Positions 28,808-31,552 of a DNA stretch of 64,000 bases are shown here, piece after piece (the stretch's first letter is position 1; each line of letters begins with the position of its first letter). The stretch covers positions 280,958 to 344,957 of the forward strand of contig CAVRAW010000005.1 of the NCBI GenBank assembly GCA_963719205.1, read 5' to 3'. Made by a program: the position numbers and the translations under genes. This DNA is from Pirellulales bacterium (GTDB taxonomy: Bacteria > Planctomycetota > Planctomycetia > Pirellulales > JADZDJ01). The notes under the pieces are model-generated. The model was not told the DNA's origin. It did no database searches and saw only the letters and a program-made list of their open reading frames with translations.

Positions 28808-31552
28808 ATGGCCTTCCGTCTCGACAAATTCACGATCAAAGCCCAAGAAGCCATTCAGCGCGCTCAGGAACTCGCCGCCGACCACGGCCAGCAGCAAGTC
28901 GACACCCTCCATCTCCTGGCCGCGCTCTTGGGCGAACAAGGAGGCATCGTCCAACCGCTCCTGGAAAAAATCGGCGTCAACCGCGCTCAGCTCGATCGCA
29001 TCGTCGAATCCGAACTTAGCCACCTACCCAAAGTCAGCGGCGCCGAAGTCCATCCCGGCCTCAGCACGAATCTTGCCCAAGTGCTCGAAGCCGCCCAGCG
29101 CGAAGCCGGCACGATGAAAGACGACTTCGTCTCCACCGAGCACCTGCTGCTGGCTCTCACCAAAGTCGACTCCAAAGCCAAAAACGTCCTCAAGCTCAAC
29201 GCCATCACTGAAAAGCAACTCCTCGAGGCCATGAAAACCGTCCGCGGCTCATCCCGCGTCACCGATCAGGCCCCCGAAGGAAAATTCCAAGCCCTGCACA
29301 AGTACGGCATCGACCTCGTCGAGCGCGCCCGCGTCGGCAAGCTCGATCCCGTGATCGGCCGCGATCAGGAAATCCGCCGCGTCATCCAAGTCCTCTCCCG
29401 CCGAACCAAAAACAACCCGGTCCTCATCGGCGAACCCGGCGTCGGCAAAACCGCCATCGCCGAAGGCCTCGCTCTGCGAATCGTCCAAGGCGACGTGCCC
29501 GACAGCCTCAAAAACAAGCGCGTCATCGCGCTGGACCTCGGCGCACTCATCGCCGGCGCAAAATACCGTGGCGAATTCGAAGACCGCCTCAAAGCCGTCC
29601 TCCGCGAAGTCGAAGACGCCGCCGGCAACGTCGTCCTCTTCATCGACGAGCTGCACACCATGATCGGCGCCGGCGCAGCCGAAGGCGCCACCGACGCCGC
29701 CAACTTACTAAAACCCGCCCTGGCCCGCGGCGAACTCCGTTGCATCGGCGCGACCACGCTCGACGAATACCGCAAACACATCGAAAAAGACGCCGCCCTG
29801 GAGCGCCGCTTCCAGCCCGTCTACGTCGGCGAGCCCTCCGTCGACGACACCATCGCCATCCTCCGCGGCCTCAAGCCCCGCTACGAGGCCCACCATAATG
29901 TAAAGATCAAAGATTCCGCCCTGGTCGCCGCCGCCAAGCTCTCGCAGCGCTACATCACCGACCGCTATCTCCCCGACAAAGCCATCGATCTGGTCGACGA
30001 AGCCGCCAGCCGCCTGGCCATGGAGCTGGAAAGCGTCCCCGGCGAAATCGACGTCATCCAGCGCCGCATCACGCAGCTCGAGTTGGCCGATCGCCAACTG
30101 GCCGAGGAAACCGAAGAGCACGCCGTCGAGCGCCGCGCCGAGCTGCAGGAAGAAATCCAAAACCTCCGCAAACAGCTCGCCAGCCTCCGCGAACAATGGG
30201 AAGCCGAAAAGCTCGGCCTGGGCGACGTGCAAAACGTCCGCAAACGCCTCGAAGCCGTCGAACTCGAAATCACCCAAATCAATGCGCAGATCAAGGAACA
30301 ACAATCAACCGGAATGCCGGTCGCCGAGGATGTGTTCCAGCGCCTGTTCAACTTGGACAAGGAACGCAAATCGCTGGAAAAGAAAATCGAATCCAGCGGC
30401 GCTGAAAAACCCGACCAAAAAACTGCCCCCCATAAAGCCGCGACCGCCGGTCGCGGTTTTCCCAGTAAAGCCGCCGATGGTATCGGCGGTTCCCCCGCCC
30501 CCAAACGCCGCCTCCTCCGCCAAGAAGTCGGCCCCGACGAAATCGCCGAAGTCGTCTCCGCCTGGACCGGCATCCCCGTCACCCGCATGCTCGAAGGCGA
30601 ACGCGCCAAGCTCCTCGTCCTGGAAGAACGCCTCCATCAGCGCGTCGTCGGGCAAGACGAAGCCGTCACCGCCGTCGCCGACGCCGTCCGCCGCAGCCGC
30701 AGCGGTCTCGGCGATCCCCACCGCCCCATCGGCTCCTTCATCTTCCTCGGCCCCACCGGCGTGGGCAAAACCGAACTCTGCAAGGCCCTGGCCGAAGTCC
30801 TGTTCGACGACGAGCACGCCATGGTCCGCCTCGACATGTCCGAGTTCATGGAAAAGCACACCGTCAGCCGCCTGATCGGCGCGCCCCCCGGCTACGTCGG
30901 CTACGAAGAAGGGGGCATGCTCACCGAAGCCGTCCGCCGCCGCCCCTACTGCGTGGTGCTCTTGGATGAAATCGAAAAAGCCCACCGCGACGTGTTCAAC
31001 ATCCTCCTGCAAGTCCTCGACGACGGCCGCTTAAGCGACAGCCACGGCCACACCGTCGATTTCACCAACACCATCATCGTCATGACCTCCAACATCGGCA
31101 GCCAGCTCATCCAGGAAATCGCCAAGGAAGGTGGAAGCGAAGAAGACATGCGCACCGCCGTGAAAGAAACCCTCGCCACCCGCTTCCTGCCCGAATTTTT
31201 AAACCGCATCGACGAAACGATCATCTTCAACCCGCTGGAGCGAAAACAAATCCGCCGCATCGTCGATATTCAAATCGAGCGCCTCCGCAAACAACTAGAA
31301 CAAACCGGCCTGCTCCTCGATATCAGCGAGCGCGCCCTGAACGAAATCGCCACCGAAGGCTACGATCCAACTTTCGGCGCAAGACCTCTGAAGCGCGTCA
31401 TCCAACAGCGCGTAGTGAACCCGCTTTCCCGCGAACTTCTAAAAGGCGAATTCCCCGAAGGCGCCACCGTCCGCATCGACTTCACCGACAGCGAATTCAC
31501 CTTCTCCCGCAGTGATGCGGCCGGCAAGAAAAAAGAACCAGTCAAGGCATAA
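28808..31552 (+). CDS. clpB: ATP-dependent chaperone/disaggregase ClpB, with a ~30-aa in-frame insert made of hairpin repeat modules
   Basis: ATG at 28808 (MAFRLDKFT). Walker A motifs GEPGVGKTA and GPTGVGKTE, a coiled-coil M domain, and GARPLKR. The insert spans 30426..30490. Confidence 0.95.
30428..30489. repeat. two family C hairpin modules embedded in frame in clpB
   Basis: CCCATAAAGCCGCGACCGCCGGTCGCGG (stem CCGCGACC/GGTCGCGG) and CCCAGTAAAGCCGCCGATGGTATCGGCGG (stem CCGCCGAT/ATCGGCGG). They translate as ..[21 protein letters not shown].. Confidence 0.8.

Follow-up and report, generated by a model that had tools for sequence, protein, structure and literature searches.

Repetitive extragenic palindromic (REP) sequences are GC-rich stem-loops of 20-40 nucleotides (nt) with a conserved tetranucleotide at the 5′ foot of the stem (PMC3733652, PMC6006769), and those with a GTAG foot are recognized by REP-associated tyrosine transposases (RAYTs; PMC6006769). 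GTAG- and CGTC-tagged REPs also occur inside genes of several species, including uvrA of Opitutus terrae, a bacterium of the Planctomycetes-Verrucomicrobia-Chlamydiae (PVC) group, and dnaE, as do Rickettsia palindromic elements (RPEs), and such intragenic inserts have been argued to be tolerated, not functional (Di Nocera et al. 2013, PMC3733652). REP insertions in flexible loops have also been noted, and double-foot REPs described (Quentin et al. 2018, PMC6006769). Here we describe two hairpin modules, each with the foot AAAG, inserted in frame in the chaperone gene clpB of a Pirellulales bacterium, within a 64,000-nt stretch of its genome (the window). The modules belong to a multi-copy, mostly intergenic repeat family that forms inverted doublets, shows insertion polymorphism and has in-frame copies in other genes. 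This family resembles the systems of REPs, REP doublets forming hairpins (REPINs; also bacterial interspersed mosaic elements, BIMEs) and RAYTs in its compact GC-rich stem-loop with a conserved tetranucleotide at the 5′ stem foot, in copies that are scattered and, among those placed, mostly intergenic, in doublets inverted around a conserved spacer, in double-foot palindromes, and in occasional in-frame intragenic copies, uvrA being a notable case. The clpB modules are probably copies of such a dispersed, REP/REPIN-like family, one whose AAAG foot is non-canonical, and are tolerated in the loop, itself probably disordered, at which the ClpB middle domain ends.

Both clpB hairpins (30431-30456 and 30464-30489) are perfect, with an 8-bp stem, a 3-nt loop and AAAG 5′ of each stem. 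In module 1, CAT (30431-30433) and AAAG (30434-30437) precede the stem arms CCGCGACC (30438-30445) and GGTCGCGG (30449-30456) around the loop GCC (30446-30448), and TTTT follows; in module 2, CCCAGT (30461-30466) and AAAG (30467-30470) precede the arms CCGCCGAT (30471-30478) and ATCGGCGG (30482-30489) around the loop GGT (30479-30481). The 70-nt clpB segment that forms the two hairpins folds at -34.6 kcal/mol (z = -5.98), a stability reached by 0 of 200 shuffles, and its DNA fold is equivalent to the RNA fold. The window holds 9 distinct perfect hairpins with stems of at least 8 bp, against ~2.7 expected from block shuffles, and only the clpB pair lies inside a confidently coding gene; no Rfam family matched within 24000-32000 of the window. 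The sequence and translation of the two in-frame stem-loops at 30426-30490 are as the initial annotation gave them. Its further statement that they share a leader holds for the AAAG foot but not for the single 12-mer CCCAKTAAAGCC: the corresponding letters are CCCA-TAAAGCC (module 1) and CCCAGTAAAGCC (module 2), and through this 1-nt indel a search with CCCAKTAAAGCC misses module 1 and finds module 2 only, ruling it out as a common leader.

Module 1 has a near-identical intergenic counterpart in the 137-nt spacer between the minus-strand gene pair pheA-tpiA, which runs from the stop of the pheA-like gene (25212) to the start of tpiA (25074). This copy sits 13 nt upstream of the tpiA start, with tpiA on the opposite strand. 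Two of its 28 positions depart from module 1, a level of match reached in 0 of 100 shuffles; over 25088-25114 a single base differs, and the 26 of 27 matching bases confirm the near-identity originally reported. Among syntenic regions collected through ClpB homologues (L-numbered loci; P numbers denote ClpB proteins), L001 and L005 have orthologous copies in this spacer, L006 has what may be a relic, and L008 lacks the element there. The stems of the three orthologous copies are intact while their flanks differ.

The unit is repeated well beyond these two sites. A scan with the 21-mer AAAGCCGCGACCNNNGGTCGC against one genome per GTDB species recovered at least 119 stretches of the module 1 family (AAAGCC-GCGACC-NNN-GGTCGC). 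Among the 80 matches listed, 74 bear Planctomycetota labels (Pirellulales, Planctomycetaceae, Thermoguttaceae and Phycisphaerae, and so from both Planctomycetia and Phycisphaerae), three from one 'Nealsonbacteria' bin, and three are proteobacterial singletons that lack the leader; by our own arithmetic, about 17 matches to AAAGCCGCGACCNNNGGTCGC, with its 18 fixed bases, would be expected by chance. Single metagenome-assembled genomes (MAGs) carry at least 8-9 copies among the matches listed, and 8 copies, leaving out those in clpB, lie in ~106 kb of clade A DNA (clade A is defined below) that was not chosen for the element. The unit YAT-AAAGCC-GCGACC-NNN-GGTCGC-G recurs in several places of the syntenic loci: L001 and L005 have it both in clpB and in the pheA-tpiA spacer, L003/L004 in clpB, L003 and L005 also as inverted pairs, and L005 once more at the extreme end of clpB. 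Conservation is confined to positions -4 to +23 and drops sharply outside, which defines a unit of ~27 nt with the consensus yAT-AAAG-CC-GCGACC-RNY-GGTCGC-G-S, in which the G at +21, although not part of the search pattern, is 97% conserved and lengthens the stem. Sister subfamilies have the stems GCCGAT or GGCGAT, and GCGGCC, GCCGCC and GTGTCG stand as further stems on the AAAG-CC foot.

A second scan, of metagenomes with the pattern AAAGCCGSCGATNNNATCGSCGG (AAAGCC-G(C/G)CGAT-NNN-ATCG(C/G)CGG), found the module 2 family in at least 120 contigs, with 141 copies among the matches listed. In 132 of these 141 copies the bases at the two degenerate positions of the stem complement each other, and the 3-nt leaders TGT, CAT, TAT and CAC are common to the module 2 and GCGACC families. 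The AAAG foot, fixed by the search pattern, nevertheless recurs in the separately searched module 2 family and in the variant stems. Across 10 hand-picked hairpin representatives, a sample that allows a descriptive account only, both-sided changes occur in 5 of 8 stem pairs and 93.8% of cells are paired. An element confined to two sites would, by the initial annotation, have weakened its reading; copies of both modules are instead dispersed, and most of those placed are intergenic.

To place copies relative to genes, we called genes by a simple method based on codon usage, which recovers the L001 calls except for a few short genes that it misses; stop-free stretches proved useless as a coding test in these GC-rich genomes, where nearly every copy lies inside a long open frame. 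Of 159 GCGACC-type copies, 112 are intergenic, 17 run over a gene end and 30 lie within genes, many near an end. The TAA of the leader aTAAAGCC supplies the stop codon in 15 of the 17 end-overlapping copies, that of clpB in L005 included, and in the module 2 family, with 96 of 141 copies intergenic, it is the gene stop in 10 of 141. Orientation between co-directional genes is even (31 GCGACC copies same-sense, 29 antisense). Inverted doublets within 300 nt number 22, and every one has the AAAG tag outward (reverse arrangement, 0); their spacing clusters at 49-118 nt, and spacer sequence is similar among doublets of one MAG. Three copies are fully palindromic 'double-foot' forms, and some are full A3-GCC..GGC-T3 palindromes. 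At the coaC-coaB junction, a ~110-nt doublet (in L005 1691-1866) separates the stop of coaC from the start of coaB in L005, against ~7 nt in the window and L001, an insertion or deletion polymorphism at an orthologous site. Some reverse-strand matches to the module 2 pattern appeared to lie deep in genes, those for pirin-like proteins among them (..DYIAGFP..); they are coding sequence native to these genes and were discarded. In L005 the clpB stop codon is the TAA of an AAAG-hairpin copy (12768-12791) other than the one inside the gene.

Intragenic copies are not confined to clpB. Most forward copies use the frame AAA-GCC-GCG-ACC, the TAA stop lying in the neighbouring frame, and the stop-free reading AAA GCC GCG ACC nnn GGT CGC encodes K-A-A-T-x-G-R-G, a run of small flexible residues. 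A double UvrA contains an in-frame inverted doublet (KAATGGRG-TSAAE-DRDRRSRLS), a MurC ligase contains ATDGRGFM and an FGGY sugar kinase HKAATGGRA; further in-frame copies lie deep in an ABC permease (2), a DUF7133/HEAT/cytochrome c protein, a membrane protein and an AAT-family protein (3). Pfam domains flank or span the insertions in UvrA, MurC, the FGGY kinase, the ABC permease and the DUF7133/HEAT/cytochrome c protein, and the peptides that the element encodes in MurC and in the FGGY kinase fall in alignment gaps of solved homologues in the PDB. RPE-1 insertions, by comparison, are 100 nt or more, and window-type units are 27-33 nt. Both kinds place in-frame palindromes in conserved genes, RPE-1 adding a surface peptide with function kept, but RPE-1 palindromes are longer than REPs (PMC3733652); RPEs are confined to Rickettsia and presumably unrelated in sequence, whereas AAAG units occur in free-living Planctomycetota, so that size and host set the two apart. 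A palindrome within a highly conserved chaperone had been called unusual; the in-frame ClpB copy is real, but less exceptional than this implied, as the uvrA and dnaE cases are documented (PMC3733652).

The host protein is a full-length ClpB with intact motifs. Its identity is 100% with database protein P0001 and 74-92% with the ClpBs of Pirellulales, its nearest named relatives being MAGs of Pirellulales (Planctomycetota), and it has the domain set of P0001 in Pfam: N-domain, nucleotide-binding domain 1 (NBD1), coiled-coil middle domain and NBD2. Walker-type columns are invariant, as are all catalytic columns and motifs across ClpB homologues. In the alignment with E. coli ClpB (4d2q), residues 363-489 and 523-620 correspond to the two flanks of the insert, and 74 residues separate these flanks in the window protein versus 33 in E. 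coli. The repeats directly precede the conserved (T)MRLLRxxV (T523-MRLLRNKV in E. coli) and lie at the end of the last middle-domain helix, where the chain returns to the AAA+ body; the site proposed originally, in the linker between the middle domain and NBD2, is therefore right in being in frame in ClpB but is the C-terminal end of the middle domain and not strictly that linker. In an AlphaFold model built on 40 homologues, and used only for the local contrast of helix and coil, the middle-domain helices (412-531) have a predicted local distance difference test (pLDDT) score of 72-87 and residues 532-572 are coil with pLDDT <32; the repeat-encoded residues 542-563 form a 22-residue stretch inside this predicted coil. 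In all Pirellulales ClpBs compared, this region varies in length and has low complexity. Most likely the insert is a disordered loop on the protein surface.

Comparison of relatives dates the module 1 insertion within this order. Module 1 occupies the same place in clpB, with an invariant stem, in the window, L001, L003 and L005 (clade A), and its 3′ flank GAATC(A/G) is common to L001, L003 and L005. Divergence at fourfold sites is 0.20 between the window and L001, 0.31 between L003 and L005 and ~0.34 between these pairs (range within the clade 0.20-0.35), 0.25 between L002 and L006 (clade B) and ~0.5 to the outgroup L007. Module 1 was not found in clpB of clade B, of L007/L008, of P0008 or of the other Pirellulales ClpBs compared. 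One gain in the clade A ancestor is the simplest account of this distribution. A peptide shared across the order with no nucleotide similarity to intergenic repeats would, by the initial annotation, have spoken against an insertion; among the ClpBs compared it is not order-wide, being limited to four clade A genes, and comes with the same nucleotide hairpin.

Other palindromes have a more irregular history at the same site. The UUUU tail and module 2 are found only in the window among the four clade A clpB orthologues, and the linker holds a module-2-type hairpin in the window and in three other loci: L002 has a compensated stem, GGCGAT/ATCGCC, L129 a variant stem, GTGTCG/CGACAC, and the hairpin of L006 is decayed. 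A GGGAGAGGG-type palindrome (CCCTCTCCC..GGGAGAGGGCCGGGGTGAGGG) lies in the clpB linker of L002 and L005, and in L128 (4546-4728), which encodes the more distant Pirellulales ClpB P0037 (75% identity), the linker holds a GGGGACTGTCCCC-type palindrome, GGGGACTGTCCCCTTTTGC..GCAAAAGGGGACTGTCCCC, translated ..RGLSPFAESSEQKGTVPLG... Gains and losses of these linker palindromes do not track the gene tree. Since at least four palindromic families occupy the linker in different lineages, it is a permissive hot spot. The second of these families, in frame in the linker of L002 and L005, is also intergenic in the window, at 33580-33600 (CCTCTCCC..GGGAGAGG) and in a further copy followed by CTGAAGTGAGGG (Table 1).

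Table 1. Coordinates of the hairpin modules, related palindromes and associated genes in the window
Feature	Position	Strand	Description or basis
clpB, full-length, 914 aa	28808..31552	+	ORF and translation; flanks of insert align to E. coli ClpB 4d2q
Module 1, 10 protein letters	30431..30460	+	CAT-AAAG foot, hairpin, then TTTT; -18.6 kcal/mol alone
Module 2, 10 protein letters	30461..30489	+	CCCAGT-AAAG foot, hairpin; -15.7 kcal/mol alone
Intergenic copy of module 1	25088..25115	+	pheA-tpiA spacer; stem CGCGACC (7 bp) / loop GTC / stem GGTCGCG
tpiA, flanks intergenic copy	24319..25074	-	Translation; PF00121 at syntenic position in L001
pheA-like gene (chorismate mutase / prephenate dehydratase), upstream neighbour of spacer	25212..26234	-	Pfam CM_2/PDT/ACT for syntenic gene
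Palindrome of second family, intergenic	20553..20593	+	CCCTCTCCC..GGGAGAGGG-CTGAAGTGAGGG; family occupies clpB linker in L002, L005

In the preferred reading, the copies landed and persisted in the low-complexity loop with which the ClpB middle domain closes; read in the stop-free frame, with its small flexible residues, they do no more than lengthen a probably disordered loop and leave the chaperone intact. Spread would proceed as single-stranded hairpins cut and rejoined by an HUH/Y1 transposase of RAYT type that reads the AAAG foot, as RAYTs read GTAG. As no cognate transposase was found in the fragments searched, we infer mobilisation by an HUH/Y1 enzyme by analogy, and we likewise infer that ClpB itself gains no function from the copies in its gene.

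Several points weigh against a REP/REPIN-like origin. Searches by tblastn with two Y1 queries over 1.5 Mb of genome fragments returned no cognate transposase, with Y1 genes only in L003, L007/L008, L135 and L230 and none in the window or in loci L009-L127, and no REPtron, that is, a RAYT gene flanked by the AAAG repeat, was found in these fragments. The foot is AAAG and not GT[AG]G or CGTC. The 21-nt core is identical across the phylum, whereas REPs are normally species-specific, or at most genus-specific, and this identity could point to host-level selection in place of selfish spread. Copy numbers are lower bounds and not counts per whole genome. The AlphaFold model is poor overall (mean pLDDT 61), and a fold search from it was dropped as the model was too weak. 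Finally, the module 1 stem is unchanged in four diverged clpB genes, with 5 of 5 fourfold sites invariant against 50.5% at comparable clpB sites (P ~0.03); because these stems and the tpiA-spacer copies stay unchanged, resident copies are either under some constraint or subject to gene conversion. The proposal that REP-like, extragenic-type palindromes are inserted in frame in ClpB is supported, then, while membership of REP/REPIN itself is not proven given the AAAG foot and the absence of a cognate RAYT from the fragments searched.

The Y1 genes whose flanks were examined sit among other repeats. Those of L003, L007/L008, L135 and L230 have the subclass-1.2-like motif Y---Q--HH, and several lie just downstream of clpB in relatives (L003 3600-5400, L007 6816-7097, L008 12756-13076, L135 970-1482), embedded in arrays of their own REPs, which in L003 consist of GGAAGTAGCCCCAACCGTGAGGTTGGGG and AGGCCCGGAGGGCCGG units. 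In both flanks examined the hairpins are different ones, GTAG-CCCCAACC in L003 and AGGCCCGT-GAAC in L135; the L003 Y1_Tnp beside clpB, at first a promising cognate RAYT, was rejected for its GTAG-footed REP, and that of L135, with the same pattern, likewise. Miniature inverted-repeat transposable elements derived from IS200/IS605 (PATEs), and the class 3 / subclass 1.2 TnpA_Y1 systems of Planctomycetes, resemble the AAAG family in being hairpin-based and presumably acting through single-stranded DNA, and in the subclass-1.2-like Y1 genes next to clpB in relatives; they differ in that these Y1 genes are flanked by hairpins of their own and in that AAAG is not the CnGA foot reported for class 3.

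The identity of the core also suits a different account, the chief rival, in which the AAAG hairpin is a motif selected in the host (an mRNA 3′-end or stability hairpin, a weak bidirectional terminator or a site bound by a conserved planctomycete protein) and the coding copies are collateral. Identical 21-mers in Planctomycetia and Phycisphaerae would follow from selection, and many copies lie at or within a few nt of stop codons, the leader TAA being itself the stop in 15 of 159 and 10 of 141 copies of the two families. Orthologous copies hold perfect stems amid diverging flanks, the full A3-GCC..GGC-T3 palindromes resemble bidirectional terminators, and no cognate transposase was found in the 1.5 Mb of DNA searched. 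Intrinsic terminators are likewise GC-rich hairpins, sometimes flanked by A- and T-tracts, and module 1 of the window reads AAAGCC..GGTTTT; but most AAAG copies lack a T-tract such as that of the dnaK terminator at 28749-28774, the two orientations are equally frequent, and the stem sequence itself is repeated. A consensus terminator scan does not flag the copies, and their 3′ flanks show no T enrichment, leaving the terminator reading unsupported. Strict tag-outward doublets with a conserved spacer are REPIN-like, presence and absence differ at orthologous sites, and in-frame copies deep in MurC, UvrA and ClpB make no sense as 3′-end signals. We regard a host-selected motif as improbable on balance.

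Co-option of the hairpins for clpB itself, through ribosome pausing between the middle domain and NBD2, transcription attenuation, temperature sensing or a peptide that tunes regulation by the middle domain and DnaK, could draw on the stability of the fold, the UUUU directly after module 1 in the window, the stem conserved in four clpB orthologues and a site that adjoins the regulatory middle domain. Yet the U-tract and module 2 are missing from the other three orthologues, at this place close relatives carry either no hairpin or palindromes of unrelated kinds, the element is present in hundreds of other, unrelated settings, and the prediction for the stretch with the peptide is an unstructured one; regulation specific to clpB is unlikely, and we attach very little probability to this account as a whole. 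Least credible is the notion that nothing was inserted, the peptide being a native lineage-specific linker and the tpiA-spacer match a coincidence or an assembly artefact. The variable, low-complexity linker of all Pirellulales ClpBs compared would accommodate it, but a 26/28 match was never seen in shuffles, the same clpB hairpin is present in four independent assemblies, and hundreds of identical copies exist elsewhere, which together refute it.

A REP/REPIN-like family tolerated in ClpB remains our preferred reading, and a limited search of the literature on RAYTs and planctomycetes found no description of it; the string AAAGCC is absent from the accessible part of the REP tables of PMC6006769. 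The AAAG repeat family and the repeatedly hit ClpB site appear to be undescribed. Intragenic REPs are already known; what sets the present case apart is the AAAG foot, the phylum-wide core, the lack of an identified RAYT and the recurrently occupied exit loop of the ClpB middle domain. A bolder proposal, which we hold to be possible though rather doubtful, is that AAAG-footed hairpins form a third 'tagged' REP superfamily beside GTAG and CGTC. Such a superfamily would be ancient and Planctomycetota-wide, with a core kept identical by a conserved partner that recognizes it, either a host protein or an HUH/Y1 enzyme of non-canonical type; it would donate TAA stops and repeatedly seed K-A-A-T-x-G-R-G or A-T-x-G-R-G-F-M loops in the essential proteins ClpB, UvrA and MurC, with the end of the ClpB middle domain as a recurrent landing pad for at least four families.

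For annotation, the practical consequence is that 27-nt units make lineage-specific peptides in conserved proteins and relocate stop codons, and Planctomycetota alignments and MAG gene calls should expect both. An AAAG-footed family with tag-outward doublets, phylum-wide identity and no visible RAYT offers a test case for hairpin recognition and for long-term residence of repeats. Where the ClpB middle domain ends, 10-40 residues have been inserted repeatedly and the gene has been kept, which marks a permissive site beside the element that regulates ClpB. The case is of moderate interest to specialists in mobile DNA and annotation, and the understanding of ClpB is unchanged.

Other repeats and palindromes were seen in the window. 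The dnaK terminator, a canonical intrinsic one in the interval from the dnaK stop (28719) to the start of clpB (28808), has an 11-bp stem and then TTTTGCTTT, and T-tract terminators are therefore used in this genome. A third hairpin family, CC(G/A)TCGTTTAGCCCCGGGCTCG(C/G)CCCGGGGGT, is present at 20480-20511 and 21271-21302, with an orthologous copy in L001 (~2353-2390), and its copy at 21271 overlaps the C-terminal codons and stop of a coaC-like gene. Identical 39-nt copies at 36478-36516 and 39094-39132 flank a TPR-repeat gene and resemble the 5′ half of a tRNA (CCGGACGGGTGGCCGAGCGGTTTAAGGCACCGGTCTTGA), the similarity stopping after 39 nt; ARAGORN detected no tRNA in the whole window, and the copies may be tRNA fragments or attachment-site remnants. 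Three tandem 408-nt repeats (60858-61973), 99% and 86% identical to the reference copy over 300 nt, lie inside a gene call on the plus strand (60374..63154).

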